Shown here piece after piece: positions 9,126-30,578 of a DNA stretch of 64,000 bases. The stretch covers positions 23,610 to 87,609 of the forward strand of contig JADHXI010000001.1 in NCBI GenBank assembly GCA_016783065.1, in the 5' to 3' direction. Below the pieces are notes generated by a model. It searched no databases. It was not told the DNA's origin and saw only the letters and a program-made list of their open reading frames with translations. The position numbers and the translations under genes were made by a program. The stretch comes from Desulfobacteraceae bacterium (GTDB lineage: Bacteria; Desulfobacterota; DSM-4660; Desulfatiglandales; Desulfatiglandaceae). Each line of letters starts with the position of its first letter. Position 1 is the first letter of the stretch.

Positions 9126-9138
9126 GGAGGATTTATTG

Positions 9139-9660: not shown

Positions 9661-9727
9661 AGGTACAGCAGGAACAGGGTCTCAAAAATGTGAGGTATGG
9701 CTGGGGCGGCGGGTATCTCTTTCGGAG

Positions 9728-9939: not shown

Positions 9940-10045
9940 TGGTCTGTCTGAAGAGTAGCAGACAAGCCGGGAAAAGGGTCCCATAGTCATACTATAGACC
10001 CTAAGCTAAAGTTTTTGGAAACGATTTGAAAGGAGAAACGGAAAT

Positions 10046-10738: not shown

Positions 10739-12463
10739 CTATTTCCATTTCTCGACTAATTCTTCATATTTCATGGTTTTGGGTTTTTCTCTTTCCTTTA
10801 TTTCAGGCCATGGTGCTCCCGGATTCTTGGATTTGTCCAGCCAGAACTCCTTTGGCATTATAGGATTGAGAACGGGATTGTAGTTGGGAAGTCTCATCTT
10901 GCCCATGAGAACGTCCATGTCCTCGGCCAGGTTGTTCATCGCCTCCTCAGCGGTGATGTCACCGTTAAGGGCCGGCCCAATGTTCTTCCACCATTGTTCC
11001 GCCAGTAGCGGGTAGTGCGGCACATTTACGCCGGAGTCCGTGTACAGTTTTTCATATTTGGATCGGTAAAACTCGATAACACCACCCCATTTTCCCATCC
11101 GCTCTGACACGTAGGGATGGAATATACTGGATTTCCGGATGGGTCCGTTACCATAGAGGAACTTTTTGAGTTGAACGGTTTTGGAGACGCAAAACTGGGC
11201 CCAGAGCCATGCTGCATCACGATTCTTGCCTTTTACGTTCTTGGGAATCGTCCATGCGCCGCAGTCCTGATATCCCACCTTCATTCCTTCCTGCCAGTAC
11301 TTCCCGTGGGGAACAGGGGCTACCCGCCAGTTGAGGTTCCCCGCAGCATCGACCATGGGAGGCTTATGAAATCCAGGGTCCCAGAGCCCAACGATATAGT
11401 AAAAACAGAATTGAGCAATGTCACCGCCCTTGGCATAACCAAGCATCTCCGTGGCGCTTACGGAGTAAACGCTGGGGGGCGCATATTTCTTTGCCCAGGT
11501 GAGATATTTGTCTAAGGCATAAATGGACGCGGGGCTGTTTACGGCCCCACCCCGCTCCACAGAAGCGCCGACGGGAATGCGTTGTTCGTTGACGCGGATT
11601 CCCCAGTCATCAACGGGAAAGCCATTGGGAAGACCTTTGTCAGAAGCGCCTGCAATGGAGAGCCATGCGTCGGTAAAGCGCCAGCCAAGGTCCGGTCCCT
11701 TTTTCGCGAAATCAAAGTGACCCCATCGTTTCTTTCCGTCAATAACCCGGCCTGTAAAAAATTCCGCAATGTCTTCATAGGCAGACCAATTCAGCGGTAC
11801 AGCCAACTCGTAGCCGTACTTTTTCTTGAAGGCTGCCTTCAGGTCCGGCCTGTTGAACCAGTCATGACGGTACCAGTAAAGCGCAGAAAACTGCTGGTCC
11901 GGAAGCTGTAGTTGATTTCCATCGTAATCCTGGCCGAATTCCAGATTTAGAAAATCGTCCAGATCGAGGTAGGGATCGGTAACAGCCTTCCCCTCCCCAG
12001 CCATATATTCGGTCAGATTGACGATAGCACCCGAACGCAAATGCCACCCAACAAGGTCAGCATCATTGATGAAAACGTCATAGAGTTTTCGTCTGGTTTG
12101 CACCTGTCGCGCGATACGGTCGACCACATCACCTTCGCCAATGAGGTCGTGTTTCGCGGTAATGCCCGTAATTTCCTGGAAGGCCTTTGTGAGGATATCA
12201 TGTTCAAAGACATGGGGAGCTATGGTCTCTGAGCAAGAGGTGATTGTCATGCCACGGTAGGGTTTGGCTGCTTCGGCGAACCATTCCAATTCCTTCCTTT
12301 GCTCTTCTTTACTGAAGGCCGACGGCTGGAACTCATTGATCCATTTTTCGATGGCCGCTGCGGTTTTTTCATCAACAGCCGCTTCTACGGGAGAAAGAAA
12401 ACACGCAAAAGCAAGGCCCAAAATGATAAAACACGCACCGACAGATAGCATCTTTTTTGTCAT
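10739..12463 (-). CDS. ABC transporter substrate-binding protein (large CUT1/glycerol-type SBP, Sec signal)
   Basis: AAAGGAGG SD. Signal peptide MTKKMLSVGACFIILGLAFACFLSPVEA. It is the last gene of the ABC operon. Confidence 0.8.
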   Translation of the reverse strand: MTKKMLSVGACFIILGLAFACFLSPVEAAVDEKTAAAIEKWINEFQPSAFSKEEQRKELEWFAEAAKPYRGMTITSCSETIAPHVFEHDILTKAFQEITGITAKHDLIGEGDVVDRIARQVQTRRKLYDVFINDADLVGWHLRSGAIVNLTEYMAGEGKAVTDPYLDLDDFLNLEFGQDYDGNQLQLPDQQFSALYWYRHDWFNRPDLKAAFKKKYGYELAVPLNWSAYEDIAEFFTGRVIDGKKRWGHFDFAKKGPDLGWRFTDAWLSIAGASDKGLPNGFPVDDWGIRVNEQRIPVGASVERGGAVNSPASIYALDKYLTWAKKYAPPSVYSVSATEMLGYAKGGDIAQFCFYYIVGLWDPGFHKPPMVDAAGNLNWRVAPVPHGKYWQEGMKVGYQDCGAWTIPKNVKGKNRDAAWLWAQFCVSKTVQLKKFLYGNGPIRKSSIFHPYVSERMGKWGGVIEFYRSKYEKLYTDSGVNVPHYPLLAEQWWKNIGPALNGDITAEEAMNNLAEDMDVLMGKMRLPNYNPVLNPIMPKEFWLDKSKNPGAPWPEIKEREKPKTMKYEELVEKWK

Positions 12464-12636
12464 CTTTATCCTCCTTTGTTATTTGGCAAGATCGATTAGC
12501 GACGAATACCTTTCACCACACGCTTCATTCGGTACGGACAGCAATCAGTCGTTTTCACCTCCTTTCCTTTAAAAAATAAGCTTTGTCTCGGGCCTGATGT
12601 CTCATTCACCAGTTTGCATTCAAATCCGCTGTTTGG

Positions 12637-12933
12637 TTATCCCCATTTTGCCAGGACAAAAAACCAAACAGCTGCTATGACCAGCGGTAAGATCATGAGG
12701 ACGCCTTTAAACAGGCCGATCCAAAGCATGCAGATGCCTATGGTCGATATAATTCCAAGAAAGAGCCGGTCGCCACGTGTAGTCACCATTGGGAGAAACC
12801 CCTTACGGCGCACACAGGGCCGGTACCCTTCCCAGATACTCATACCAATAAGGGTAAAGAAAAGCGCCAAAAAAAAGATTGCACTCGGAAGGCTCCACTG
12901 CATCCATCTGACTTGTTCTTCCAGCCATTCCAT
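12637..12933 (-). CDS. DUF2160 small integral membrane protein (ABC-transporter accessory)
   Basis: GGGGAGGG SD. 98 aa with predicted TM helices. The TTRGDRLF motif matches my recollection of DUF2160 proteins. It starts 3 nt after the permease stop. Confidence 0.7.
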   Translation of the reverse strand: MEWLEEQVRWMQWSLPSAIFFLALFFTLIGMSIWEGYRPCVRRKGFLPMVTTRGDRLFLGIISTIGICMLWIGLFKGVLMILPLVIAAVWFFVLAKWG

Positions 12934-12936
12934 TGC

Positions 12937-13737
12937 TCACACCCTCCCCAAGGAAAAGCCTTTTGCCAAATAATGTCTCACAAAATAGACAACGAAAATA
13001 CCCGGGAGAATCATCACCACGGTCAGGGCCGACATCAATCCCCAGCGGGTCCCTTCAACGGCCTGCTGGGCCACCGCGATGGTTACCACCATGGGTTTGG
13101 CAAGGGGACCCGTCAGTGTTTTGGCGATGATCATCTCCACCCAGGAGAAGGTGAAGACAAAAAAGGCGGCGACCCCAATCCCGGGGGCGATCAGCGGAAA
13201 GAAAACTTTGCGAAAAAAACGGAAGAAGCTGAAACCGTCGATGAAGGCCGTTTCATCGATCTCTTTTGGAATGGCGGACATGAAGCCTTCAAGGATCCAG
13301 ACGGCCAACGGAATATTAAAAAGGCAGTGGGCGAGGGCCACCCCCAGATGCGTGTCGAAAAGCTTGAGGGTAAAATAGAGTTCTGTAAACGGGATCATGA
13401 ATATCGCTGCAGGCGCCATACGGTTTGTAAGCAGCCAGAAAAAGAGGTGGTTGCTTCCGCGGAATTTCCACCGTGAAAAAGCATAGGCCCCGGGGATTGC
13501 GGCAAGAAGTGTGATGACCACGTTCAGACACACATAAATGATAGAATTGATGAGGCTGTCCGTCCATATGGGATTGGTGAATATTTCGATATAATTAGCA
13601 AATGTGATCTCTTTTGGAAAGAACGTGGTCATGGTAAAGATCTCATTTTCGGTCTTGAGAGAGTTTACGATCATCCAGTAAATGGGGAACATAAGGAGTA
13701 TGTAGAAACAGACAAGGAAGATGATTCTTTTTTTCAT
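12937..13737 (-). CDS. ABC transporter permease (MalG/UgpE-like)
   Basis: EAA-loop ETAFIDGFSFFRFFRKVFFPLIAPG. ATGA overlap with the upstream permease. Confidence 0.85.
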   Translation of the reverse strand: MKKRIIFLVCFYILLMFPIYWMIVNSLKTENEIFTMTTFFPKEITFANYIEIFTNPIWTDSLINSIIYVCLNVVITLLAAIPGAYAFSRWKFRGSNHLFFWLLTNRMAPAAIFMIPFTELYFTLKLFDTHLGVALAHCLFNIPLAVWILEGFMSAIPKEIDETAFIDGFSFFRFFRKVFFPLIAPGIGVAAFFVFTFSWVEMIIAKTLTGPLAKPMVVTIAVAQQAVEGTRWGLMSALTVVMILPGIFVVYFVRHYLAKGFSLGRV

Positions 13738-14594
13738 CGCTTTATTCCTTTCCCCAGGTTGGTCATTATGGTGTAGAAAATAAAACAGCAGACTACCACA
13801 ATGTACAGATAGGCGATTGATGCGGCCCCTGCATAGCCCAATTCGTAAGATTCGGCCTTTCTTGCAACGTATTGATTGAGATAGGTGTTCCAGTTGCCAG
13901 GTCCACCTCCCGATATGATGAAGGGTTCTGCATAGATCATGAAGGAGTCCATAAAGCGCAGCAATAGTGCAATAATCAAGACGGCTCGCAGCTTGGGCAG
14001 GGTGACATACCTGAAGGTCTTCCAGGCCGAAGCGCCATCGATGGCCGCAGCCTGATAGAATTGATCAGGGATTGCCACCAATCCGGCATAGGAAAGCAAA
14101 ACCACCAGTGGAGTCCAGTGCCACACATCCAGGAAAAAAATCGTAAGGACTGCATCCACGGGGTTTTGCGTGACCCGGTATGAATAATCAAATACATAGG
14201 AGAAAATCTTACTTATTATCCCCACCTCGTACACCGTCATGATCCGCCATAGGAGCCCCACCACCGTGTGCGGTATCAGCAGCGGAATTCCCAATAAGAC
14301 CAGGCACACCACTACTGATTTGCCACTCTTTGGCAGTTGCATGGCAATGAGGATTCCCAAGGGAATCTGGACCAGCAGAACACAAAAACTGAATAGGAAC
14401 TGACGTCTGAGAGCGCCCAGGAAGTCAGGATCGGTGAATACTTCAATGTAGTTATTAAGACCCGCGAATTCCGGTGCGGAACCAGCGAAACTGTAATGCA
14501 GCGAATAATTGATGACCGCCATAATGGGGACAAGCGCGTTCAAAGCCACAAGCAACAAGACGGGTGCAACGAAAAGCCAGGCTCTGTTCTTCAT
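13734..14594 (-). CDS. ABC transporter permease (MalF/UgpA-like)
   Basis: EAA-loop QAAAIDGASAWKTFRYVTLP. Multi-TM hydrophobic profile. Confidence 0.85.
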   Translation of the reverse strand: MKNRAWLFVAPVLLLVALNALVPIMAVINYSLHYSFAGSAPEFAGLNNYIEVFTDPDFLGALRRQFLFSFCVLLVQIPLGILIAMQLPKSGKSVVVCLVLLGIPLLIPHTVVGLLWRIMTVYEVGIISKIFSYVFDYSYRVTQNPVDAVLTIFFLDVWHWTPLVVLLSYAGLVAIPDQFYQAAAIDGASAWKTFRYVTLPKLRAVLIIALLLRFMDSFMIYAEPFIISGGGPGNWNTYLNQYVARKAESYELGYAGAASIAYLYIVVVCCFIFYTIMTNLGKGIKR

Positions 14595-14709
14595 TCACGT
14601 TACCTCCTGGAAATCTCCCTGCCCGATTACTCTCACGGTCCTTGAACCGGACAGTCTTTTTAACCCTGAAGCCGTTTGTTGAATCAGGTGTCTGAATTCG
14701 CGCCGTGAA

Positions 14710-15837
14710 TCAGACCAATCTCACATCCTTGTGGAAGATTCTCGACTTGTCTTCCGGAAAATTTACCCAAACGTGATCCTCCTCAGACACGTTCATGTCT
14801 TCTGGAGCGCGGCTCTTTATCTCAACGTCATTTGAGTTCAAGGTCAAGATTTTGTAAGGCCCCAGACTTTCGATGGCTGTTACCGTGAAAGGATGCCACT
14901 TCTCTTTTCTGGGCGCGCTTATTTGAACGAATTCAGGTCGAATTCCAAACTGAAAGCTGGATCCGTGGGTCAGAGCGAGTTTGGATCTGATTGCTTCAGA
15001 AATAGGTATGACAATATTTCCTGACTGCAGCCCTGCATCCGTAAGGACGCAGTCAAACAAATTCATCCCGGGAGTGCCGATAAAATACCCGATGAAAGGG
15101 CTGTTGGGATCAGCGTACAATTGCTCCGGCGACCCCGTTTGAACCAGTTGACCCTCCTTAACAACCGTAACGTGATCGGCAAAGGTCAATGCCTCGTGCT
15201 GATCGTGCGTTACGTAAATCATGGTGATCCTAAGTTCCTTCTGGACTTCCCTGAGTTTCCTTCGAAGCCCCCACTTCTCTTTGGGATCAATGACCGTCAA
15301 AGGCTCATCAAGCAGAATGGCTGCCGTGTCCTCTCTCACGATTCCCCTTCCCAGGGAAACTTTCTGCTTTTCAGCAGGGGTGAGGGATCCTATAGGGGCC
15401 TTTAACTTGTCATCCAGATCCAGCATTTCGGCGATGGTCTCGATTCTTCTGCGGATATCTTTTTTTGATACCCCTCGGTTTTCGAGGGGAAATTCCAGAT
15501 TGCCGTAAACATTCATGGTGTCATAAACCACGGGGAACTGGAAGACCTGTGCCACATGCCTTTCTTTGGGCATATAGCCTGTGACGTTCTTGTCGTTGAA
15601 TAGGACGGTTCCGTTTGTGGGTCTCAGCAGGCCTGAGATGATGTTCAGAATCGTTGTTTTGCCACACCCAGAGGGGCCAAGCAGTGCATTGGCCGTACCA
15701 TCTTCCCATAAAAGGTCCAGGTCTTCGACCACAAAACCCTCTGTTCCCACACACTCGTCCGGAATGGACATTTTCTCCGCATCCTTTTGGGAAAAGGTAT
15801 AGGAGTGGTAAATGGACTTCAATGCTATTCTTGCCAT
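14710..15837 (-). CDS. ABC transporter ATP-binding protein (second NBD of a two-ATPase system)
   Basis: Walker A GPSGCGKTT and a C-terminal MalK-like regulatory domain. Start set to ATG 15837 (MARIALKS) with a GGGAGG SD. Confidence 0.85.
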   Translation of the reverse strand: MARIALKSIYHSYTFSQKDAEKMSIPDECVGTEGFVVEDLDLLWEDGTANALLGPSGCGKTTILNIISGLLRPTNGTVLFNDKNVTGYMPKERHVAQVFQFPVVYDTMNVYGNLEFPLENRGVSKKDIRRRIETIAEMLDLDDKLKAPIGSLTPAEKQKVSLGRGIVREDTAAILLDEPLTVIDPKEKWGLRRKLREVQKELRITMIYVTHDQHEALTFADHVTVVKEGQLVQTGSPEQLYADPNSPFIGYFIGTPGMNLFDCVLTDAGLQSGNIVIPISEAIRSKLALTHGSSFQFGIRPEFVQISAPRKEKWHPFTVTAIESLGPYKILTLNSNDVEIKSRAPEDMNVSEEDHVWVNFPEDKSRIFHKDVRLV

Positions 15838-15882
15838 GATGGCCTCCCGCATGCCCAGGCAGGCTGGGTGTAGTTGCTAATT

Positions 15883-16986
15883 TCAGTCTTGATGCGTCTT
15901 GGCAATTAATCTGCCATCATCTTTGTCATAAACAAAAAACCGACGTGGATTGACATATACCGTTATATCGGTATCAATTGTATAGGTCCCCATCCCCTGG
16001 ACCAGTGCAATCAGGGGAAAACCGTGATGGTGTAAATGTAATTCAGTGTCCGAGCCAACGACCTCCGACAGTTCCACAGTGGCCTGAATGGGAAGGGTGT
16101 AGACACCGCTTTCCACAGTATTGAGCCCATGGGCGCGAATACCTAACAAGTAGCGGTCCTTTATCAAGAGGTCGCGAAATTCATCCACATCTATCATCAA
16201 TTCATCTGAGGCCTTGAAAAAAAGCCTTCCGTCTCGGGTCATTTTTCGGCACTCAAAGATGTTCATGGCTGGATAACTGAAGTAGGCCCCTACCTCGGTG
16301 GAGCAGGGGTTGTGGTAGACGTCGTCCGCCAGCCCGTACTGAATCAATCTCCCCTCATGTAAAAAACCCACGTATGTGGAGAGAGACAAGGCATCCACCG
16401 GTTCGGGTGTTGCAAAGATAACCGCGCCGCGCTGGCGACGTCGGAAAATCTTCTTGAGCTCCAGCCGAAGTTCTTCACGCAATTTATAGTCCAGGTTGGT
16501 CAAAGGTTCATCAAGAAAAATATAATCAGTCTCTTTGACGATGGACCTGGCTATGGCCAGCCGCTGTTGTTGCCCGCCACTGAGTTCTGATGGGTGCTGG
16601 CCGAGAAGCGTCCCAATTTTAAGAAGGTCTGCACACTCCCTGACCCTCTTGTCAATCTCTCCCTTTGTAAGCTTGGCTTTGGATACCCTCAAGGGAGAGG
16701 CAATGTTTTCGTAGACCGTCATGGACGGATAGTTGACAAAATGCTGGTAGACCATGGCGATGTTTCTCTCGCGCACAGTCAGATTTGTCACGTCCTTACC
16801 GTCATAATAGATCTTGCCCTTATCCGGCTTGTCGATTCCGGCCATCACCCGAAGCAAGGTTGTCTTACCATGTCCGGATGCAGCCAGGAAAGTGCAGAAG
16901 TCACCATCTTTAATTTCCAGGGAAACATCATCCAGTGCCGCCTTGCCTTCAAAAAGTCTGGTTACGTTCTCAACGATGATGCCCAT
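15883..16986 (-). CDS. ABC transporter ATP-binding protein (first NBD)
   Basis: Walker A ASGHGKTT, signature LSGGQQQR, Walker B IFLDEP. Start set to ATG 16986 (MGIIVENV) with an AGGAG SD. Confidence 0.85.
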   Translation of the reverse strand: MGIIVENVTRLFEGKAALDDVSLEIKDGDFCTFLAASGHGKTTLLRVMAGIDKPDKGKIYYDGKDVTNLTVRERNIAMVYQHFVNYPSMTVYENIASPLRVSKAKLTKGEIDKRVRECADLLKIGTLLGQHPSELSGGQQQRLAIARSIVKETDYIFLDEPLTNLDYKLREELRLELKKIFRRRQRGAVIFATPEPVDALSLSTYVGFLHEGRLIQYGLADDVYHNPCSTEVGAYFSYPAMNIFECRKMTRDGRLFFKASDELMIDVDEFRDLLIKDRYLLGIRAHGLNTVESGVYTLPIQATVELSEVVGSDTELHLHHHGFPLIALVQGMGTYTIDTDITVYVNPRRFFVYDKDDGRLIAKTHQD

Positions 16987-17199
16987 AAGACCCAACTCCT
17001 GTGGTAACCTTGGAAGAAACTCTCTCGCTTTCGTTTTTGGCAGCCCCCTGACATATGGTATCAGAGCATGTAGTTTATCCGCCTCCACCTCATGATTATG
17101 AAAATGGAAGCGGATTCTTCTGTCAAGCTTTTTTTAGACCACCTATCTTTGGGAAACTGTAACTCCTGGACATGCCTTTTCTATTATTCCATTGATCCA

Positions 17200-17925
17200 C
17201 TAAAAAGGATCGCTGTTTCTCCGCCTGATATAAATCTGGTCTACGGCGACGTGATCGGAAAGAGAGAGCATGAAAATAACGGTCAAAGCTATGTCTTCCG
17301 GTCGAATGAGATCAACCTTCTCAATGTCCGGCCGGGCATATGCAATCAGTTCGGTGTCAACCGATCCAGGAAGAATTGCAGAGACCCGGATATTATGTTT
17401 TTGAGCCTCAATTGAAAGAGCCTTTGTGATCCCCATGATTCCGTGTTTGCTTGCACAGTATGCCGATTGTCTCGGGTATCCTCTGAAGCCTGCGACGCTG
17501 GCGATGTTGATGATATAGCCGTTCTTGTTTGGTATCATTGCCCTCATGGCTCTTTGACAGCAGAGAAATGTCCCGCGCAGATTAACGCTCATGACCTGGT
17601 CAAAATCACCAATTGGGAAATCGACCACCTCTTTGAAAATCCCGGTTCCGGCGTTATTAACAATGATATCCAGTTTATTGAATGTGGTATCAATTTTTTC
17701 GAATAGCAAGTTGACATCCTTTTCATCGGATATGTCCGCCGGTATCAAAATGGCCTTGCCTCCGGCTTGGATAATCTCCTGCTCAACTTCTTCAATCTGT
17801 CTGACAGTTCTCGCACAAACGACGACTTGTGCTCCGGCATCTGCCAGCGCAAGACTAATGCTGCGTCCAATGCCGCGGCCTGCCCCGGTCACAAGGGCTA
17901 TCTTACCATCAAGGCGAGGTGGCAT
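17200..17925 (-). CDS. short-chain dehydrogenase/reductase (SDR), polyol/diol dehydrogenase-like
   Basis: TGAGRGIGR cofactor motif and YCASK catalytic motif. 241 aa. Confidence 0.85.
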   Translation of the reverse strand: MPPRLDGKIALVTGAGRGIGRSISLALADAGAQVVVCARTVRQIEEVEQEIIQAGGKAILIPADISDEKDVNLLFEKIDTTFNKLDIIVNNAGTGIFKEVVDFPIGDFDQVMSVNLRGTFLCCQRAMRAMIPNKNGYIINIASVAGFRGYPRQSAYCASKHGIMGITKALSIEAQKHNIRVSAILPGSVDTELIAYARPDIEKVDLIRPEDIALTVIFMLSLSDHVAVDQIYIRRRNSDPF

Positions 17926-17940
17926 CTTTAACCTACTCAG

Positions 17941-18090
17941 TTAGTGCCTGAACGAAAACCCTGTTCAGGCACGATTTTAGATTTTAGATTTTAGATTAAT
18001 GGAATTAATGGAATCAATTCCAACTAACTAAAACCTCATGATTGATGTTGGGTTCGTTTTCATTTCGAGGTTTTCGTTCGGACACTATTT
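17941..18090. mobile_element. ~150-bp MITE-like element, copy A
   Basis: Left end TTAGTGCCTGAACGAAAAC and right end TTTTCGTTCGGACACTATTTA are imperfect terminal inverted repeats. The same ends and the same 150-bp length recur at 22467-22616. The interior holds a 10-bp perfect hairpin (17944-17972), GATTTTA x3 (17973-17997) and AATGGAAT x2. Confidence 0.5.
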
Positions 18091-18109
18091 ATATGTCCAA
18101 AAGGCCTGA

Positions 18110-19084
18110 TCAATTGCTGGCATAGACTCCCCTCATGATATCTGAGGGATCCGGGTCGTGACACTCATTTTCGCAATAGCGGATGGACTCCTCGATTTCA
18201 TCCGCCACCTGCTTTTCCACGTCCAAACAGCCGTGCTCCGTGAGAATTCCTTCATCGATCAGTTCGTTCTTAAACCTTACAATGGGATCACTTTTCTCCC
18301 CTTCGAGTCTTTCCCCATCCGTCCGATAGATATCCGCATCGCTGATGGAATGGCCCGTCCACCTGTGGACCATACACTCTATGAGGGAGGGGCCTTCCCC
18401 ATTTCTGGTCCTTTCAATTGCCTTTTCGGTCACCTCATAAACGGCGCGTACATCATTTCCATCCACGGTGACACCCGGTATTCCATATGCCTGGGCGCGA
18501 TCCGACAGGGATTGAATTCGGGTGGATTTCTTGGCTGAGACAGACATTGCATAGCCATTGTTTACAAGCTGAAAGATAACAGGCAAGTTCATCACGGCTG
18601 CCATGTTGAGGCCTTCGTGGAAGTCACCTCTATTTGAGGCGCCATCTCCAAAAAAGCATTCCACCACAGCTCCATTTCCGTCCCTATCCAGGGCAAGTCC
18701 AACACCTGCAGCCAGGGGAATCGCAGACCCGATAATTCCGGGACCAGGAATAATGCCCTTTGAAAGATCTCCATACATATGAGACCCTGTGGGTGCTCTT
18801 CCCCCTTCAATGCCCTCCTTCTTTGCGTAATACCCCGCCATCAGATCTTTAAGGCCCATCCCTTTGATCAATTCGGGGAGTTTCCCCCGGTGAATGAGGG
18901 TGATACAATCCTTCTCCTGTAAACCGTAAGCGGCCCCCACATTGGCTGCTTCTTGTCCGATGCCGGGATGATGGTGCCCGCGCAGTCTGCTCTCTCTGAA
19001 AAGAACCGTTATCTTTTCCTCGAGCCTCCTGCCCAACACCATCCAGTAAAGCATTTTCTGTAAATCATTGTTCGAGAGTTCCAT
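18110..19084 (-). CDS. TPP-dependent dehydrogenase E1 alpha subunit (set 1, divergent subtype)
   Basis: TPP motif GDGASNRGDFHEGLNMAAVMNLPVIFQLVNN. It lacks the THRGHGH / CKGKGGSMH blocks shared by sets 2 and 3. Confidence 0.85.
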   Translation of the reverse strand: MELSNNDLQKMLYWMVLGRRLEEKITVLFRESRLRGHHHPGIGQEAANVGAAYGLQEKDCITLIHRGKLPELIKGMGLKDLMAGYYAKKEGIEGGRAPTGSHMYGDLSKGIIPGPGIIGSAIPLAAGVGLALDRDGNGAVVECFFGDGASNRGDFHEGLNMAAVMNLPVIFQLVNNGYAMSVSAKKSTRIQSLSDRAQAYGIPGVTVDGNDVRAVYEVTEKAIERTRNGEGPSLIECMVHRWTGHSISDADIYRTDGERLEGEKSDPIVRFKNELIDEGILTEHGCLDVEKQVADEIEESIRYCENECHDPDPSDIMRGVYASN

Positions 19085-19254
19085 CCCATTTCCTCCAGAA
19101 AACCATCATGTTCATTGTGCTACAGAAATCCCGCCCCATTGAACTCAGATGAGTGTCGCCATGTCCCTTTATAAATAATTCCAGGTCATGAAGGCAGGAC
19201 CATGAATTACATTTTACTCCATCTCATATGGTATATTAATACTTGAAAAGCCCC

Positions 19255-20505
19255 TCAACGCATGCTTACCATGAGCCTGTTTAGATCTTCCAGGTGAGCC
19301 TTCACTTCTCTCATAAATCGGGCACCAGGTCCTCCATTGACCACCCTGTGATCAAAGGAGCATACGATGATCATTTTCTTTCTAATTGCTATTGTCCCAT
19401 CAATCACAGAGGGTACCTCCCGTACAGCCCCTAACGACATAATCGTGGTCTGTGGCTGAAGAATAATGGGAGTGCCATACATGATACCATAAACACCCGC
19501 ATTTGTAATGGTGATAGTCCCTCCGGTTATGTCTTTCGGTTCAAGTTTGTCATTCCTTGCCTTTGATATTATTTTACGTACCTCTTCCCCTAATTGCAGT
19601 ATCGATTTATCCTTGACGTCCTTGACCACAGGAACAAGCAGTTTCTCACCCAGATCCACCGCAACGCCTATGTTCAGGGCATCTTGAACAACAAACCCGT
19701 CTTCATAGCAATATGCATTAACCTCAGGTATCAAGTCGATACCGACCTTTATCGCTTTCATTATAAACGGAAGGTATGTAAGCCGTGGTTGATCTTCCCG
19801 GGACTTGCTGGCCGCAATCATTTGGGATAAATCGGTCACATCGATCTCAACCGCATTATTATAATGGGGAACCTCCCTGACACTCATAGTCATTCTGTCT
19901 GCAATGACTTTTCGCCATCCAACAAACTTGACCTTTTCTCTCCCCTCTGTCTTCCGGGAATCTTTGGCTTTGACACCCGTACCGGGTGTATCCGGTTCAA
20001 CCCGAGATTTCTTCTCAATGAATTTAAGGACATCGGCCTTTACGATTCTTCCTTTTGGTCCGCTGCCTGAGGATATTTCAGCCAGATCTACGCCGTGAGC
20101 CCGCGCAATGGCCTTCGCCGTGGGCGAAACCCTCCTTTTCTTTGCAGGTCTGCCAGCAGAAGGGCCTTCCTCTGCCTTTCCCTCTTGACTCGTGGCAGTT
20201 ACATCAAACTCCCTGGCTTGTCCTGGCCCTTTGGCTCCTCTTATTTCCTCGGGAATAACTTCCCCGTCTTCTCCAATGACACCCAGAACGCCGCCAACGG
20301 GCGCGGTTTCCCCTTCCTGATAAAAAATCCCTCTTAAGACCCCGGAACCTTCGGCAGGGATCTCCACATTTATCTTGTCAGTTTCAACAGTTACGACGGC
20401 TTCACCCAGCTGAATCTCTTCTTCAAGGGACTTGAGCCATTTGGTCACAACGGCCTCCGTTATGTTAAACCCCGCTTCCGGCACCTTTATCTCATACATG
20501 ATCAT
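19255..20505 (-). CDS. dihydrolipoamide acyltransferase E2 (set 1)
   Basis: Lipoyl motif VETDKINVEI, one E3-binding domain (VSPTAKAIARAHGVDL...GPKGRI), catalytic SFDHRVVNGG. ATGA overlap with E1 beta. Confidence 0.9.
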   Translation of the reverse strand: MIMYEIKVPEAGFNITEAVVTKWLKSLEEEIQLGEAVVTVETDKINVEIPAEGSGVLRGIFYQEGETAPVGGVLGVIGEDGEVIPEEIRGAKGPGQAREFDVTATSQEGKAEEGPSAGRPAKKRRVSPTAKAIARAHGVDLAEISSGSGPKGRIVKADVLKFIEKKSRVEPDTPGTGVKAKDSRKTEGREKVKFVGWRKVIADRMTMSVREVPHYNNAVEIDVTDLSQMIAASKSREDQPRLTYLPFIMKAIKVGIDLIPEVNAYCYEDGFVVQDALNIGVAVDLGEKLLVPVVKDVKDKSILQLGEEVRKIISKARNDKLEPKDITGGTITITNAGVYGIMYGTPIILQPQTTIMSLGAVREVPSVIDGTIAIRKKMIIVCSFDHRVVNGGPGARFMREVKAHLEDLNRLMVSMR

Positions 20506-21503
20506 TCTCCTGCCGAAAACGTGAGGATTTCTCTGGCTGCCTTCACGATCTTGTCCGCATTGGGAAGGTAGAATTGCTCCATCTCAGGAGAGGAGGGAAT
20601 CGGGCAAAACAAGGCCCCCACGCGCTTGACAGGACCGTCTAGGAAATCTATCCCCTTGTCCGCCAACAAGGCAGCAATTTCTCCGCCAAATCCGCCGGTC
20701 GTCGGCGCTTCATGTACAATTACCGCTCCCCCTGTTTTCTCAACGGAGTTCAAAATGATCTCCTCATCCAGCGGCAAAATGGTCCTGGGGTCCACCACTT
20801 CGGCACTGATGCCCTCTTTCTCCAAGATCTTGGCTGCCTCAAGGGCTTGCTGGACCATTGCGCCCGTGGCGATGATGGAAATATCTTCTCCCTCCCGTTT
20901 CACGTCGCCCCGGCCGATGGGGGTCAGATATTCCTCTTCAGGGACCGGGCCCTTGAGCCTCTTATAAAGGAACTTATGTTCCATGAACAGCACCGGGTCA
21001 TTGTCCCTTATGGCCGACTTGAGCAGCCCCTTTGCATCCGCCGGTGTTGAAGGCATCACGACTTTCATACCCGGGATATGGGCAAACCATGCTTCCAGAC
21101 TCTGGGAATGGTGCAGTCCTGCTCCAACCCCCGCGCCATAGGCGGTCCGATAAACGATGGGGACATCAGCATGCCCTCCCAGAACCCACCTCATTTTGGA
21201 TGTGATGTTGACCATATGGTCAGCGGTTAGGGGAAGAAAATCGCCGAACATGATTTCTGCAATAGGTCGGTACCCCATCAGGGCAGCCCCACCAGCACAT
21301 CCCGCTATGGCAGACTCAGAAAGAGGGGTGTCAATCACCCGTTTCTCACCAAATTTTTCCAGAAGACCTCGGGTAGCGCCAAACACACCGCCCCCGCCAT
21401 AACCAATTGCAATGTCTTCACCCATGATGAAGACCTTCTCATCACGTTCCATTTCCTCGATCAGTGCCTCGTTAATGGCTTCAATGTATGTTATCTCTCT
21501 CAT
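20502..21503 (-). CDS. TPP-dependent dehydrogenase E1 beta subunit (set 1)
   Basis: ALIEEMERDEKVFIMGEDI, HSQSLEAWFAHIPGMKVVMPSTP, C-terminal transketolase domain. Confidence 0.9.
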   Translation of the reverse strand: MREITYIEAINEALIEEMERDEKVFIMGEDIAIGYGGGGVFGATRGLLEKFGEKRVIDTPLSESAIAGCAGGAALMGYRPIAEIMFGDFLPLTADHMVNITSKMRWVLGGHADVPIVYRTAYGAGVGAGLHHSQSLEAWFAHIPGMKVVMPSTPADAKGLLKSAIRDNDPVLFMEHKFLYKRLKGPVPEEEYLTPIGRGDVKREGEDISIIATGAMVQQALEAAKILEKEGISAEVVDPRTILPLDEEIILNSVEKTGGAVIVHEAPTTGGFGGEIAALLADKGIDFLDGPVKRVGALFCPIPSSPEMEQFYLPNADKIVKAAREILTFSAGE

Positions 21504-21555
21504 GAAAAATCCCTCCCTTTAGAAAAATCTCCCTGGCGGTCCTTGGTGTAATGAT

Positions 21556-22410
21556 TTAGTAGAGTTTGGGCACCGCGGCTTCAAAAATTTTCTTAGAATG
21601 CTCATCTGCCCGCCTCTTGTTTCTTACAGCCATCATGGTATAAAGCACATCAATGACAGAGAGGTGCTCGATCCTTGAGGCCAGAACATCGTTGCGGAAT
21701 CGGGTGTCCTTGGATCTCGCAATCAGTTTAATATCCACCATTTTTGCAAAGTATGAACGCGGATTGTTGGTCACCCCGATGGTTGTGGCTCCCAGGTTTT
21801 TCCCGATTTTGATTACATCGATGAGATCACGGGTGTCGCCTGAGCGGGAAAAACCCAGAAGAACGTCTTTAGGGGTCATCAATGAAGCCTTAATGGCTTG
21901 AAGATGGACATCGATCACATATTGTGCGTCTATGCCAAAAAAGGCAAGCTTTTCCGCGGCGAATATGGCTGTTGACCGTGAAATCGACAGAGCCATCGCG
22001 AGCACCTTTCGAGCATTTTTCAGGGCCGTGAATGCTTTTTCCAGCTCGTCATAATCCAATATCTTCAGCGTATCATCGAGACTTTCGATGGTGATGCTAA
22101 AGACCTTGCTCGCGATGGCCTTGGCATCGTCTGTTTTCTTGATCGGCTCGTAGGGTTTGGTGATATGGGTGACGCTCTGGCGGGCAAAGGCCAGCTTGAA
22201 ATCACGAAATCCGCCATAATCAAGGGTGCGGCATAATTTAAAGATCGTGGTCTCACTCACACCGCTTAGCGAGGCCACATCAGAAATGGTCATGTCCAGA
22301 ACACGTTCCCCGTTGGCCAGGATGAACTCCGCGGCCTTCCTTTCAGCCGTATTCAGGGAGCGACAAACGGATTCTAGCTTTATGAGACAATCGGGCCTTG
22401 CCATTGCCAT
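21556..22410 (-). CDS. RpiR/MurR-family transcriptional regulator (HTH_6 + SIS)
   Basis: N-terminal LNTAERKAAEFILAN...ISDVASLSGVSETTIFKLCRTLDYGGFRDFK followed by a SIS-like domain. Confidence 0.85.
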   Translation of the reverse strand: MAMARPDCLIKLESVCRSLNTAERKAAEFILANGERVLDMTISDVASLSGVSETTIFKLCRTLDYGGFRDFKLAFARQSVTHITKPYEPIKKTDDAKAIASKVFSITIESLDDTLKILDYDELEKAFTALKNARKVLAMALSISRSTAIFAAEKLAFFGIDAQYVIDVHLQAIKASLMTPKDVLLGFSRSGDTRDLIDVIKIGKNLGATTIGVTNNPRSYFAKMVDIKLIARSKDTRFRNDVLASRIEHLSVIDVLYTMMAVRNKRRADEHSKKIFEAAVPKLY

Positions 22411-22466
22411 CCTATTCCTGGGGTTTTTTTAAACTCGATTTCTATGATGAACATATGGCGAATCTA

Positions 22467-22616
22467 TTAGTGTCTGAACGAAAACTGTCTTTTTCGCCCA
22501 TATCTGCGTCAGACTCAAATTTTAATCCTCGAAATACTCAATGTATTCCTGCGGTTAAAATCTTCGTCTTCCTTGATCTGAACGAAAAATCCTAATTTTC
22601 GTTCGGACACTATTTA
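22467..22616. mobile_element. ~150-bp MITE-like element, copy B
   Basis: Ends TTAGTGTCTGAACGAAAAC and TTTTCGTTCGGACACTATTTA match copy A (18/19 and 21/21). The interior is unrelated. A subterminal hairpin TCTGAACGAAAAAT/AATTTTCGTTCGGA is present. Confidence 0.5.
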
Positions 22617-23092
22617 ACCGGCAAACATCATCCTGCCCCTCATGGAGGGCAGAATGACCGCATAGGGTGTTGGGAAATCCGGCTAACGGTATAACCCGTA
22701 TCCGTGCGCCGCGTTCCGGTGACAAGAGGCGTTCGAGGTCTGGGTCCCAGCAAGTTACGCCCCTTTATTGTGAAAAATTGATGGCGGCGAATTGAGAAAT
22801 CTGAGCTGGAGTCTTAGACAAATTATTCAGGGCGAATTTCTTGTTTCAGGGTTGAAGGTGTTCATCTACTTGAACTTTCTAACCGGATAGTAAAAATATT
22901 TTTTTTTGTCAAGGAAAAAAATAAAAAAACGTTGTACAATCCATCATAAGAAAATATGCTGTCATAAACGGCAGCCCGGCAGCCTCACTTTTCGAATGGC
23001 TCCTTGTGTGGGAGTTAAGACTTGGTTTTGCCCGTGCCAATAATTTAGCGACTCTGCGACCCCATTATGAAAGTGTCCATTCATTCACCTCT

Positions 23093-23110
23093 AACCCGGA
23101 TAAACCGGAA
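23093..23110 (+). repeat. 18-bp direct repeat, left copy (AACCCGGATAAACCGGAA)
   Basis: Repeated 17/18 at 23381-23398. The pair brackets a 270-bp segment containing a long hairpin. Confidence 0.5.
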
Positions 23111-23220
23111 GTGCTCAAAGTTGAAAGCTAAAAGCAAAAGAAGACGCATCAATGTGGATTTCGGGGTTGGTTCTAACATGGGCCACTTGGAGATCCCTTG
23201 ATTTTTCACTTCTCTTTTTC

Positions 23221-23289
23221 CTCTCACAGAGCCCACAGAGATCACAGGGTTTTTGTCTTGCTCGGTGTACTCGGTGAACTCTGTGAGAG
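23221..23289. repeat. CACAGAG-type long imperfect hairpin (REP-like)
   Basis: CTCTCACAGAG..CCCACAGAG..ATCACAGGG pairs with CGGTGTACTCGGTGAACTCTGTGAGAG. The outer 11 bp are perfect. It shares the GTGRACTCTGTGA motif with 28490-28505. Confidence 0.5.
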
Positions 23290-23380
23290 ATATCATTCGT
23301 TTTTCGGGCATGGTAAAATATTTTTTGTGCATCTTGTCCGCTTCTGGCGGATGTACACAAGATTGAATTGATAACTGTCA

Positions 23381-23398
23381 AACCCGGATAAACTGGAA
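23381..23398 (+). repeat. 18-bp direct repeat, right copy (AACCCGGATAAACTGGAA)
   Basis: See 23093-23110. It lies 58 bp upstream of the epimerase start. Confidence 0.5.
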
Positions 23399-23455
23399 TT
23401 GGGAATTCGGCACCATAGATAGTTCGCAGTTTGCCCAGGTTAAGGAGGATCCCCC

Positions 23456-24328
23456 ATGAAACGGAATGCTTCGATGCCGGTTGGTATCTATGAGAAGGCG
23501 TTGCCCTCTGGCCTGTCCTGGGAGGGCCGTTTAGAGATGGCCGCGAGAGCGGGATATGACTATGTTGAGATTTCCATAGATGAGAGTGAATCCCGTTTGG
23601 CCCGTCTGGACTGGTCGGCCGGACAACGTTCCCAATTGCGACGGGCCATTGCCAATACCAACATCCCGATCATGAGCATGTGTCTCAGCGCACATCGCAA
23701 ATATCCTCTGGGAAGCGCATCTCAGAAAACTCGTGAGCGAGGACTGGATATTCTTGTAAAAGCCATTGAATTTGCATCGGAAATTGGATTGAGAATCATT
23801 CAGGTCAATGGATATGACGCCTTTTATGAACCGAGCAATGAACAAACTCAAGCCAGATTTCTGGAAGGATTGCATCAAGGCATTCAATGGGCAAGTGCGA
23901 AAGGAGTCATGCTGGGTCTTGAGAATGTGGACACGCCCTTCGTTGAATCGGTAGAAAAGGCTTTGCATGTTGTCAATGAGCTTAACTCACCTTGGTTTCA
24001 CCTGTATCCGGATATGGGGAACCTCTTGGCGGCAGGGTATTCTCCCCCCAAGGAGCTACGATTGGCAAAGAACCATTTGATTTCGCTCCATGTCAAGGAT
24101 GCCAAACACGGGATCGTCCGGGGTGTGCCTTTTGAGAAAGGTGATGTTCCATTTCAGGAAACGTTTCAGGCGCTGGCCGAAATCGGATATGGGGGTCCCC
24201 TTACCGTGGAAATGTGGGCGGATCTTAGGGGGGACGCGGACCCGCTTTCTTCGGTGATGGATGCCCATAAATTCATCAAAAGCCTTGTTGATGTTCATTT
24301 GGATGCTCACGGCGATAGACCTTGCTGA
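23456..24328 (+). CDS. L-ribulose-5-phosphate / L-xylulose-5-phosphate 3-epimerase (UlaE/SgbU family)
   Basis: AGGAGG SD. PVGIYEKALPSGLSW...ISIDESESRLARLDWS...SMCLSAHRKYPLGS...WFHLYPDMGNL aligns with my recollection of E. coli UlaE. Confidence 0.85.
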   Translation: MKRNASMPVGIYEKALPSGLSWEGRLEMAARAGYDYVEISIDESESRLARLDWSAGQRSQLRRAIANTNIPIMSMCLSAHRKYPLGSASQKTRERGLDILVKAIEFASEIGLRIIQVNGYDAFYEPSNEQTQARFLEGLHQGIQWASAKGVMLGLENVDTPFVESVEKALHVVNELNSPWFHLYPDMGNLLAAGYSPPKELRLAKNHLISLHVKDAKHGIVRGVPFEKGDVPFQETFQALAEIGYGGPLTVEMWADLRGDADPLSSVMDAHKFIKSLVDVHLDAHGDRPC

Positions 24329-25664: not shown

Positions 25665-26699
25665 TCAAGGGGTCAGCAGGATCTTGATCGCCTCCGAACT
25701 CCTGAGAAGCGCGAACGCCTCTTTCCATTCCGTAAGCGGCAGGACTTTGGTAATGAGGGGATCAACATTGATCTTCTGGTTGGAGAGGATTGAGAGCGCC
25801 CTTGTCCAGCTCGTCCAGTTGGAACTGGCGCTGAAGTTCACATCCGCCGCCTTCGCCAGGGCTGCATCCCAAGGGAAGGGAACGGATTTTTGGCCTGTAA
25901 TCCCCAAGGCGCAGACCCTTCCATTGATTCGAACAAGGTCAAAGATCTGTTCGATGGCCGGGGCGGCGCCGCTTGCCTCAACCACCAGATCGGCACCCAG
26001 GCCGTGGGTCCACTGGTTTACCTTCTCTACGATGTCTTCCCTCTCAACGTTAAGCGCGTGGTCTATGCCCATCTTTCGAGCAGCCTGCAATCTGATTTTC
26101 TCATCCGCATCCGTGCCTGTAATGACCACGGTGCCTGCTCCTTCAGCCTTGGCTACCGCAGCTGCAAGCAGGCCAATGGGGCCGCAGCCCAAAACCACGA
26201 CGAAATCCTCCGGTTCGACCCTGCACTTCTCACCCAGCCCCTTCATGACGATAGCGATCGGTTCGGTGAGCGCCGCGTGTTCATTAGACACGTTGTCCGG
26301 TACGATATGGAGGGATGAGGCCGGGAGGGTGAGGTAAGGCACAAAGCAGCCATGAATTCTGTAGCCGATCGCCCTTTTTTTCGTGCATAATTCCACTTCG
26401 CCTCGCTGGCAATTTCGACAGGTGCCGCAACCGCCCTTGTGGGCTTCCGCAACGATTCGATCTCCTACTTTGAAGTCGGTCACATTTTTTCCTGTTTCAG
26501 CGATTTCCCCGAAGAACTCATGTCCAAGGATCACGGGTGGATTGCAGTTGAACCGGCCTTCTTCAATGTGCAGGTCGGTGCCGCATATTCCAGCCATCTT
26601 GATTTGAATAAGTACCTCGTTTGCTTCTACTTTCGGCTTTTCCACCTCAATGATATCAAGAAATCCCTCCCCGCTATGCGTCTTGGCCAATCCTTTCAT
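25665..26699 (-). CDS. Zn-dependent medium-chain alcohol/polyol dehydrogenase (butanediol/sorbitol-DH-like)
   Basis: CGTDLH, GHEFFGEI, structural-Zn CGTCRNCQRGEVELC and GCGPIGLL. Start moved to ATG 26699 (MKGLAKT) with a GGGAGG SD. Confidence 0.85.
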   Translation of the reverse strand: MKGLAKTHSGEGFLDIIEVEKPKVEANEVLIQIKMAGICGTDLHIEEGRFNCNPPVILGHEFFGEIAETGKNVTDFKVGDRIVAEAHKGGCGTCRNCQRGEVELCTKKRAIGYRIHGCFVPYLTLPASSLHIVPDNVSNEHAALTEPIAIVMKGLGEKCRVEPEDFVVVLGCGPIGLLAAAVAKAEGAGTVVITGTDADEKIRLQAARKMGIDHALNVEREDIVEKVNQWTHGLGADLVVEASGAAPAIEQIFDLVRINGRVCALGITGQKSVPFPWDAALAKAADVNFSASSNWTSWTRALSILSNQKINVDPLITKVLPLTEWKEAFALLRSSEAIKILLTP

Positions 26700-27102
26700 A
26701 TTATTACCTCCCAGTATTTTCGGATTTAAGCGTCTTAATTTTAATCCGTGTATCCCCAAAAGACAAGGCACCTTTGTAAGCCCCCAGTCTTTTTCAGGAA
26801 GATCAGGTTAGCTTTGTTTTCAATTCAGGCAATTCCTTGATCTTGGAATCTTTTGAATTCTCACAAATTTTCCAGTTATACGCGACAACAATGAATACCA
26901 TTTTGTGACCTCCTTGACTGTCACTCATCACAAGGATCTTCTTGAAGTTCCCCTCCGTCGGTTTGAAGCCTTTTCAGAACCCCGCTTGCAAGGTACCACC
27001 GCTTACCGAACATGCAAGGAAGTTTGGGGAGCAGTCGATAAGAACTCGCTTTTTCGGGGATGGAAAGGAGGTGAATACCACAGAATCATGGATATCTCCT
27101 GG

Positions 27103-28335
27103 TCACACGAGGCACATCCGATACGGATTTTCGAGGGTCTGCTGGAGATCCTGGATGAATGCCGCGGCCATGGCACCATCCACCACCCGATGATCCGCAG
27201 ATAGCCCAAGGTACAGAATGGGTCGAATAGCCACTTCTCCCTCAAAGACTACCGGCCTGTCCTTCATTTTTGCCACGGAGAGTATCCCGGTTTCGGGCGG
27301 GTTGATGATAGAGGTGAAAAAATCGATATTAAACTGACCAAGATTTGATACGGTGAACGTCCCTCCTTCAAGTTCGTCAAGGGTCAGTTTTTTGGTGCGG
27401 GCCTTTTGCATCAGTTCGTTTCTGTCCGTTGCGATCTGGCCCAGTGTCTTTTTATTCACGTTCCTGATGACCGGGACAATCAAGCCCTCTTCCAGCGCCA
27501 TTGCAAGGCCAATATTTATCTCCTTCTCTATTTTGATCTCCCTGTCTTCGATTACCCCGTTGAACAGGGGGTATTTTTCGATTGTGGTAGCCACCGCCCT
27601 GACGATAATATCATTAAAAGAAAGACGAACACCGGTGGTCGATTCAATGGCATCTATAACGGTTTTTCTAAGCTGGATCATTTGGGTCCCATCCACCTCA
27701 CAGGCAAAATAGACATGCGGGACATCTCTTGAACTGGCCGTGAGTCTCTGGCCGATGATCTCTCGCATCCGGGTCAAAGGGATCGTGGCCCCCAGTTGGA
27801 CTTCACCCTCCCCGGCAGGTTCTTTGTCAGATACGACTTTTTTTTCTGCTGCCTCTGCCGCGGCCAGCACATCCTCCTTTCTGATCCGCCCGTCGGGACG
27901 GGTACTCCTGATTTTGGATATGTCGATTCCCTTCTCTTTGGCGATCTTCCTCGCAACCGGGGTGATCTTAATCCTGGCAGCAGATGTCATTTCCACAGGG
28001 GTATCAACCTGTTTCTCCACAGGGGTTACAACCCCTTCTTTATCCCCATGACCCTCAGGGGTTGACGCCGGGATGGCCGATTCGTCAAATGTTTCACCTT
28101 CTTCCACCATGATGCCAATGGCCTCGCCCACTGCGGCGACCCCTTCTTCGCGGACCAGAACCCTGGCCAGGATACCCGAAATTGGCGCCTCGATTTCATA
28201 ATTGATTTTGTCGGTCTCAATTTCAGCGATAACATCTCCCGCCTCGACCCGGTCTCCTTCTTTGTAATGCCACTTGGTGACCTTTCCCTGCTTCATCGTC
28301 ATGCCAAGTTTCGGCATGATCACATTTTCAGCCAT
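27103..28335 (-). CDS. dihydrolipoamide acyltransferase E2 (set 2)
   Basis: Lipoyl IETDKINYEI, one E3-binding domain (ITPVARKIAKEKGIDI), catalytic SADHRVVDGA. Confidence 0.9.
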   Translation of the reverse strand: MAENVIMPKLGMTMKQGKVTKWHYKEGDRVEAGDVIAEIETDKINYEIEAPISGILARVLVREEGVAAVGEAIGIMVEEGETFDESAIPASTPEGHGDKEGVVTPVEKQVDTPVEMTSAARIKITPVARKIAKEKGIDISKIRSTRPDGRIRKEDVLAAAEAAEKKVVSDKEPAGEGEVQLGATIPLTRMREIIGQRLTASSRDVPHVYFACEVDGTQMIQLRKTVIDAIESTTGVRLSFNDIIVRAVATTIEKYPLFNGVIEDREIKIEKEINIGLAMALEEGLIVPVIRNVNKKTLGQIATDRNELMQKARTKKLTLDELEGGTFTVSNLGQFNIDFFTSIINPPETGILSVAKMKDRPVVFEGEVAIRPILYLGLSADHRVVDGAMAAAFIQDLQQTLENPYRMCLV

Positions 28336-28393
28336 TGAGCAATCTCCTTTTCAACACTAAATTTGATGGTCTCGTAAAAACACTCTTATCTCG

Positions 28394-28505
28394 CGCAAAG
28401 ACGCAAAGAACGCAAAGACAAAATGAATAATATCAATATATTACCTCTGTGTTCTCCCTCCGGGGCGGAGGCCCGCTACGGGCTGGAGTCTGTGGACTCT
28501 GTGAT
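28394..28505. repeat. REP-like intergenic element with tandem octamers
   Basis: CGCAAAGA x3 (28394-28418). Then CTCCCTCCGGGGCGGAGGCCCGCTACGGGCTGGAG, about 80% identical to 47700-47732. Then GTGGACTCTGTGA, shared with 23273-23286. Confidence 0.5.
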
Positions 28506-28578
28506 AAATCTGACTTTTTACATGGGTCCATATTTAGCAACTCAAAACGTCACTTTCTCTGGAAAGAAAAATAGTCTT

Positions 28579-29571: not shown

Positions 29572-29579
29572 GAATATAT

Positions 29580-30551: not shown

Positions 30552-30578
30552 GATTTATCCCTCCTGTCGGCTGATTGT

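Follow-up and report, generated by a model that had tools for sequence, protein, structure and literature searches.

A fixed E1beta-E2-E1alpha gene order marks a rare branch of the pyruvate/acetoin dehydrogenase family in anaerobic sediment bacteria

Layout of the set 1 locus

We analysed a stretch of 64,000 nucleotides (the window) from a Desulfobacteraceae bacterium (assembly GCA_016783065.1, contig JADHXI010000001.1, positions 23,610 to 87,609), with a focus on one of its three gene sets for the E1 and E2 components of a 2-oxoacid or acetoin dehydrogenase. In this set, set 1, the genes are ordered E1beta, E2, E1alpha, and this order was found to be a fixed hallmark of a rare branch of the pyruvate/acetoin dehydrogenase family. 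The list of open reading frames (ORFs), together with Pfam and NCBIfam scans, placed an rpiR gene, E1beta, E2, a spacer, E1alpha, a miniature inverted-repeat transposable element (MITE), an SDR gene and a six-gene ABC importer on the minus strand throughout, which is the co-directional string described in an earlier note on this DNA (the original prediction). The features are as follows.

21556-22410, minus strand: RpiR/MurR-family regulator, first gene of the string, with HTH_6 (PF01418, 68 bits) and SIS (PF01380, 40 bits) domains
20502-21503, minus strand: E1beta, with Transket_pyr (PF02779, 156 bits) and Transketolase_C (PF02780, 137 bits) domains; NF006667, 350 bits
19255-20505, minus strand: E2 dihydrolipoyl acyltransferase, with lipoyl (PF00364), E3-binding (PF02817) and catalytic (PF00198) domains and the motif DHRVVNGG
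19085-19254: spacer of 170 bp between E2 and E1alpha, 41% GC against 51% in the window; about 125 bp without counterpart in relatives
18110-19084, minus strand: E1alpha of a divergent clade, E1_dh (PF00676, 258.9 bits) over its full length (residues 15-307 of 324), with the motifs HRGKxPEL, GGGRxPTGSHMYGD and RWTGHSISDADIYR
17941-18091: MITE-like repeat between E1alpha and the SDR gene, with dispersed genome copies and an empty site
17200-17925, minus strand: SDR oxidoreductase (PF00106, 204 bits)
10739-17088, minus strand: GlpV-type ABC importer, comprising two ATPases, two permeases, a DUF2160 protein and a 574-residue substrate-binding protein ending at 10739 (Pfam)
5935-10645, plus strand: convergent block with an LsrK-like FGGY kinase, a 2-hydroxyacid dehydrogenase, a C_GCAxxG_C_C protein, a DUF2148 protein and a class II aldolase-family protein (NF008187, Pfam)
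31872-33245, plus strand: dihydrolipoamide dehydrogenase (E3), the only one in the window (PF07992 and PF02852)

Set 1 comprises a complete heterotetrameric, thiamine-diphosphate-dependent E1 (alpha2beta2) and a lipoyl E2, with all cofactor motifs present; in E1alpha, the GDGASN...NN thiamine-diphosphate motif (GDG...NN) was intact. The overlap of the E1beta stop and E2 start codons in ATGA was read directly in the sequence, and the AT-rich gap before E1alpha and the type of the regulator were likewise as predicted. The named NCBIfam equivalogs HexR, AlsR and MurR all gave scores far below their cut-offs for the window RpiR, and no specific NCBIfam model scored above its cut-off for the SDR protein. 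The set 1 operon itself has no E3 gene: the one at 31872-33245 adjoins set 2, and the genome contains five matches to PF02852 (E3-like genes). E3 would be supplied in trans, with 31872-33245 as the candidate.

A clade with its own gene order and motifs

Gene order was compared with that at 16 further, distinct loci (numbered with L) in which the alpha was at least 57% identical to that of set 1 and the flanks were present. They belonged to Desulfobacterales, Syntrophobacteraceae, Desulfatiglandales, other Thermodesulfobacteriota and Spirochaetota, or were metagenome contigs. E1beta, E2 and E1alpha were found in this order, on one strand, in all 16, and the order was never seen among about 60 loci whose alphas are less closely related. 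The non-canonical order claimed for set 1 is therefore real, but it is not a peculiarity of this locus. The next tier of relatives, from Syntrophaceae and other Desulfobacterota metagenome-assembled genomes (MAGs) (L023-L026), exhibited the canonical alpha-beta-E2 order, with alphas 47-49% and betas 65-67% identical to those of set 1.

Alphas of the set 1 type formed more than 120 database clusters (57-99% identity), whose annotations were all generic; clade genes were labelled as 'TPP-dependent dehydrogenase E1 component' or as pyruvate/acetoin dehydrogenase. A sample of 120 genomes from the same taxonomic order yielded no such alpha, and a sample of 400 from the same phylum gave only two matches below E 1e-90, both being alphas of the sister group. 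This rare and patchy distribution over Desulfobacterota and Spirochaetota suggests that the clade spread horizontally.

For the phylogeny, the reference alphas were those of Heyndrickxia shackletonii and Brevibacillus borstelensis, classed by NCBIfam score and neighbouring genes as PdhA (above the TIGR03181 cut-off), BkdAA-like (lpdV upstream), Aco-type (acetoin dehydrogenase) or y-type. In the alpha tree (68 rows, rooted on PdhA and BkdAA), the set 1 type formed a clade of 17 rows (SH-aLRT 100, stem 0.59), apart from all 46 Aco- and y-type alphas, among which are those of sets 2 and 3 and another two encoded in this genome. The same clade was recovered with 15 rows in the beta tree (SH-aLRT 100, stem 0.25), where it was sister (SH-aLRT 97) to the betas of the canonical-order loci L023-L025. 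The free alpha tree grouped the canonical-order sister alphas with the Aco- and y-type alphas (SH-aLRT 83); this placement was dropped, as a tree constrained to unite the alpha clade with L023-L026 had a likelihood 6.6 units above that of the free quick tree and was not rejected (approximately unbiased test, p-AU 0.64). The constrained alpha tree agrees with the beta tree, so that both subunits give one history. The original prediction, which had proposed such a phylogeny as a check on its view of set 1 as divergent, survived it, with set 1 placed outside the PdhA, BkdA and Aco-type clades. On these trees, set 1 belongs to a distinct clade of the 2-oxoacid/acetoin dehydrogenase superfamily that has so far gone uncharacterised. 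Its ancestor would have had the alpha-beta-E2 order, and the alpha gene would have been relocated behind E2 on the stem of the clade, accompanied by faster change in alpha than in beta, a two-residue loop insertion and loss of the aspartate in the E2 motif DHRxxDG.

In a three-way alignment, the set 1 alpha exhibited HRGKLPELI and GIEGGRAPTGSHMY in place of the THRGHGHCI and GYCKG[KR]GGSMH shared by sets 2 and 3. With both motifs absent and an identity of only 39% to set 2 and 34% to set 3, the claim that this alpha is no recent duplicate of the others was upheld. Overall, identity between the three window sets ranged from 34 to 43% for alpha, from 52 to 57% for beta and from 31 to 34% for E2. 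Among 30 clade alphas, HRGK.PEL, GGGR.PTGSHMYGD and RWTGHSISDADIYR were invariant or nearly so, the second being two residues longer than the KGKGGSMH of other E1s. The thiamine-diphosphate motif was invariant in the clade, and the set 1 alpha carried every clade-invariant residue. It scored 269.6 bits on TIGR03182 (mitochondrial/alphaproteobacterial type; cut-off 393.85) and 268.4 bits on TIGR03181 (Gram-positive type; cut-off 411.35). It is thus equidistant from both pyruvate dehydrogenase (PDH) equivalog models, whereas the alphas of sets 2 and 3 are clearly closer to the y-type; the Bacillales PdhA references scored 465-489 bits on their PDH equivalog.

The E2 motif was DHRVVNGG in set 1, whereas the remaining window sets had DHRVVDGA and DHRIVDGA. 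The deviation noted in the original prediction was thus confirmed, but not as a property of this locus: the aspartate of DHRxxDG was replaced in 15 of the 16 clade E2s (by N in 8, H in 6 and Q in 1) and by Met in the sister group, whereas 38 of the 44 non-clade E2s in the same scan retained it. The lipoyl Lys (ETDK) was conserved throughout the clade. The E2p of Azotobacter vinelandii reportedly has Asn at the same position and is active, so that the replacement is compatible with catalysis and DHRxxNG is not unprecedented; what seems noteworthy is that the replacement extends over the clade. The gene order, the alpha motifs and the loss of the E2 aspartate, being fixed across the clade, are clade traits and not local oddities.

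The canonical-order sister group L023-L026 resembles set 1 in its betas, in the HRGK and RW.GH motifs and in having lost the E2 aspartate. It differs in the gene order and the more distant alphas described above, and in lacking the two-residue loop insertion.

The framing of the original prediction needs one correction: of the three sets, only set 3 is canonical (alpha-beta-E2). Set 2 (25665-31583, minus strand) is also permuted: beta, alpha, an acoX-like gene with NAD-kinase fold, E2 and a zinc-dependent alcohol dehydrogenase (Zn-ADH). The related acoX-containing loci that we compared were all ordered alpha-beta-acoX-E2. A second copy of set 3 was observed on contig C12 (4210-8076, L006), with alpha 86%, beta 91%, E2 81% and GntR 86% identical; it stems either from recent duplication or from the inclusion of a second strain in the MAG bin. 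Moreover, fused E1alpha-E1beta genes, as single ORFs of 660-698 residues, were observed in MAGs of Aerophobetes, Bathyarchaeia and Anaerolineae (L027:4049-6058, L028:10001-12010, L034:9956-12052 and L042:1203-3184).

Local additions and the conserved island

The gap before E1alpha had been taken to set this gene apart, a point that the relatives contradict. At their E2-alpha junctions, which ranged from -11 to +87 bp with the exception of L124 (about 180 bp), a conserved ribosome site, GGAGGAAAT, was kept, and alignment with four relatives left about 125 bp of the set 1 spacer without counterpart. The long spacer is thus no clade trait. The extra DNA is single copy in the genome and was also present in an independent metagenome contig. 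An RNA element was considered for the spacer and rejected, based on the absence of any Rfam match in 17000-23500 (E up to 1), a fold weaker than that of shuffled sequence (z +1.8) and the absence of repeats in the genome. One weak sigma70-like site was found inside the spacer (19239-19211); the scan as a whole was uninformative, with 13 promoter-like sites versus 7.9 ± 3.2 in shuffled sequence and terminators at chance level. Coverage by the one metatranscriptomic run was confined to fragments of the stretch. The sigma54 -24/-12 pattern was also at chance (32 matches, 31.8 expected), with none in the upstream regions, in agreement with the proposal that set 1 is not under AcoR/sigma54 control.

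The repeat at 17941-18091 was verified as a MITE-type element. It had 32 matches in the genome including itself, with at least 19 of the others full length (82-95% identity), and the family, of about 150 bp with inverted ends and conserved interiors, is dispersed across the 3.7-Mb MAG (contigs C84, C127, C162, C16, C97, C167 and others). An empty site was found in a contig of metagenome X6, from a related strain, which joins 17941 to 18086 and skips 17942-18085. Metagenome contigs stopped at the MITE ends, where depth was very high. A second MITE-like copy, sharing mainly the ends, was observed upstream of rpiR (22467-22616).

The SDR gene was missing at the corresponding place in L091 and L123. 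An RpiR ortholog was present only in L091 (71% identical, same position), the other clade members having regulators of the GntR-UTRA, GntR-FCD or SorC type; RpiR can therefore not be regarded as a feature of the clade. The long spacer, the MITE and the SDR gene are, judging from these comparisons, most simply seen as later local additions.

A larger island was common to three genomes: the window, L091 (alpha 82% identical) and L123 (alpha 67% identical). It is composed of beta-E2-alpha followed by the GlpV-type importer and, convergently, the kinase, the D-2-hydroxyacid dehydrogenase, the C_GCAxxG_C_C and DUF2148 proteins and the class II aldolase-family protein. The orthologs of the convergent block in L091 and L123 were 54-83% identical, with order kept. 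JGI lists homologs of the substrate-binding protein under the name 'glycerol transport system substrate-binding protein'. In L091, the 2-hydroxyacid dehydrogenase and C_GCAxxG_C_C proteins were observed to be fused into one protein of 513 residues (window counterpart 7528-9660, followed by the DUF2148 ferredoxin-domain gene), which suggests a dedicated electron-transfer module.

Across 15 clade loci, the recurrent neighbours were SDR (10 loci), FGGY kinase (8), Zn-ADH (7), GntR (6), E3 (6), ABC ATPase (5) and VOC/glyoxalase (4) genes. The kinases were of the pentulose type. Two of them in the window, encoded at 2427-3992 and 5935-7500, scored 582 and 584 bits, respectively, on the equivalog of the autoinducer-2 (AI-2) kinase LsrK (NF008187, cut-off 528), with no other lsr genes nearby; one of two kinases in L001 was also above this cut-off (538 bits), and the kinase directly downstream of alpha in L018 exceeded the XylB cut-off.

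Three clade loci, from spirochaetes or metagenome contigs, contained microcompartment genes. In L002, L015 and L017 (upstream regions in the latter two), likewise from spirochaetes or metagenome contigs, DeoC, RpiB and RnfC-like genes adjoin beta-E2-alpha; shell genes (BMC, EutN) were observed in L002 (1-7547), together with triosephosphate isomerase and aldehyde dehydrogenase genes, and in L092 (13591-17290). The gene set resembles that of sugar-phosphate-utilisation microcompartments. We also observed, at 33282-34541 in the window, a transaldolase/FSA-family protein that is unusually long (419 residues) and far below all transaldolase cut-offs; in a MAG of Syntrophobacteraceae (L012:7030-8202), the gene for a homolog with 47% identity closely follows beta-E2-alpha.

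Proposed function and alternatives

As a whole, we consider it probable, with moderate confidence, that set 1 is an E1/E2 unit of an uncharacterised clade that cleaves a keto intermediate within a sugar/polyol uptake island. The rpiR gene, beta-E2-alpha and the importer would form one operon, within an island that also provides the LsrK-like kinase, the 2-hydroxyacid dehydrogenase, redox partners and the aldolase-family enzyme. An imported small polyol or sugar would be oxidised and/or phosphorylated to a keto compound, either an acetoin-type alpha-hydroxyketone or a hydroxylated or phosphorylated 2-oxoacid, which E1 would cut at the carbonyl; E2 would then hand the acyl group via lipoamide to CoA, with E3 from elsewhere, and RpiR would sense a phosphorylated intermediate. 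Our best guess at the substrate is accordingly the keto intermediate of the imported compound. As to its class, no candidate is strongly favoured: a 2-oxoacid (pyruvate itself, or one with a hydroxyl or phosphate group that the neighbouring 2-hydroxyacid dehydrogenase would make) seems slightly likelier than a sugar-derived or phosphorylated alpha-hydroxyketone, followed by plain acetoin-type acyloins and, least probably, something else.

Several observations weigh against this interpretation. The enrichment of FGGY kinases was counted on related genomes and carries no independent statistic. Member neighbourhoods vary widely (branched-chain-amino-acid-type ABC, TctABC, TRAP and microcompartment loci), a diversity that speaks against a single specific sugar as the substrate; moreover, SDR, Zn-ADH, VOC and E3 neighbours also suit plain acetoin/2,3-butanediol use. 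Finally, given the weak sigma70-like site in the spacer, alpha and the downstream genes could have a promoter of their own.

One alternative, to which we give a lesser but real chance, is that set 1 is a true 2-oxoacid dehydrogenase, converting pyruvate or the product of the 2-hydroxyacid dehydrogenase (e.g. a hydroxylated or phosphorylated C3-C4 2-oxoacid) to acyl-CoA and CO2. The set 1 alpha shares with the PdhA and BkdAA proteins the fold, the cofactor motifs and the loop GHSxSD, which is found in the PDH y-type and BkdA references, as opposed to GHFEGD in Aco-type alphas. Its best matches among solved structures were 2-oxoacid and pyruvate dehydrogenase E1 alphas (1um9, 1w85 and 1ni4), a ranking that is biased because there is no solved Aco-type E1 to compare. 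The D-2-hydroxyacid dehydrogenase belongs to the conserved island, but it is kept only in the three genomes that share this island and not across the clade. Furthermore, the alpha comes nowhere near the cut-off of either PDH equivalog and, in the tree, is placed away from the PdhA and BkdAA proteins of Bacillales.

A similar, slightly smaller chance is given to the view that set 1 is an ordinary acetoin/2,3-butanediol dehydrogenase, in which the SDR or Zn-ADH enzyme would oxidise a vicinal diol imported by the ABC system, acetoin would be cleaved to acetyl-CoA and acetaldehyde, and the gene order would have no functional meaning. The Aco system (AcoA/AcoB/AcoC/AcoL, e.g. Pelobacter carbinolicus acoABCSL and Bacillus subtilis acoABCL) has a heterotetrameric thiamine-diphosphate E1, a lipoyl E2 whose catalytic domain is normal, and an NAD-linked E3, and it functions in strict anaerobes; like it, the clade has diol dehydrogenase (SDR, Zn-ADH) and VOC genes among its neighbours. 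The neighbours met most often in the clade are SDR, Zn-ADH, VOC and E3 genes, and the same mix surrounds the P. carbinolicus aco genes (PMC3543383); several clade members are labelled acetoin:DCPIP oxidoreductase alpha by JGI. On the other hand, the genome already holds an Aco-type set that includes acoX, Zn-ADH and E3 genes. The Aco system is ordered alpha-beta-E2, and the set 1 alpha, having lost THRGHGH and KGKGGSMH, falls in a clade of its own (SH-aLRT 100) outside the Aco-type one. For set 1, we found neither acoX (no NAD-kinase-like gene in the string) nor an AcoR/sigma54 signal, the regulator being RpiR instead, and the sugar kinases and RpiR, SorC or GntR-UTRA regulators that are frequent beside the clade would be unnecessary for acetoin.

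A more specific and improbable proposal is that the clade represents a new catabolic enzyme for a phosphorylated, acetoin-type 1-deoxy-ketopentose, either phospho-4,5-dihydroxy-2,3-pentanedione (phospho-AI-2) after 3-keto reduction or 1-deoxy-xylulose 5-phosphate. The substrate would be made by the adjoining LsrK- or XylB-like kinases and sensed, as a phosphosugar, by RpiR or SorC regulators, and the products would be acetyl-CoA and glyceraldehyde 3-phosphate, the latter replaced by 3-phosphoglycerate if the hydrated diketone were cleaved. Likeness to the Lsr system (LsrK, the SorC-type LsrR, LsrG and LsrF) lies in the three kinases above the LsrK cut-off and in a SorC-type regulator directly upstream in one clade member. 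The LsrF reaction ends in acetyl-CoA, as proposed here for the set 1 complex. In contrast, no LsrACDB, LsrG or LsrF genes were found near the set 1 operon, where the transporter is GlpV-type, and the link to AI-2 is put forward as a hypothesis only. If true, it would provide a consumption route for AI-2-like molecules in anaerobic sediments that is independent of LsrG and LsrF.

Lastly, we find it hardly credible that the order arose by local rearrangement or faulty assembly, or that the operon is decaying and E1alpha a separate or dead gene, as the AT-richer spacer and the MITE flanking this gene might suggest. A contig from another metagenome sample covers 18106-22410 with five substitutions and no gaps, which shows that the arrangement is no assembly artefact; the alpha is of full length and retains every clade-invariant residue, and the same order recurs in the 16 other loci.

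Our literature search yielded no description of the beta-E2-alpha clade, nor of a link between E1/E2 genes and LsrK-type kinases. In a rare branch located in sugar/polyol-uptake clusters of anaerobic bacteria from sediments, a fixed order is probably the sign of a catabolic step not yet described, rather than a local accident. Should the complex prove to act on plain acetoin or pyruvate, this work would amount to a modest note on operon evolution. Genes that bear generic labels were shown to form a coherent lineage with its own gene order, its own E1alpha active-site loop and an altered E2 catalytic motif, which recurs near sugar kinases, polyol dehydrogenases and sugar-type regulators and, in spirochaetes, in microcompartment loci. 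The beta-E2-alpha order, combined with GSHMYGD, may serve as an annotation marker that separates this clade from PDH and Aco enzymes, and the lineage offers a defined target when looking for a compound not yet known as a substrate of lipoyl-dependent C-C cleavage in anaerobes.

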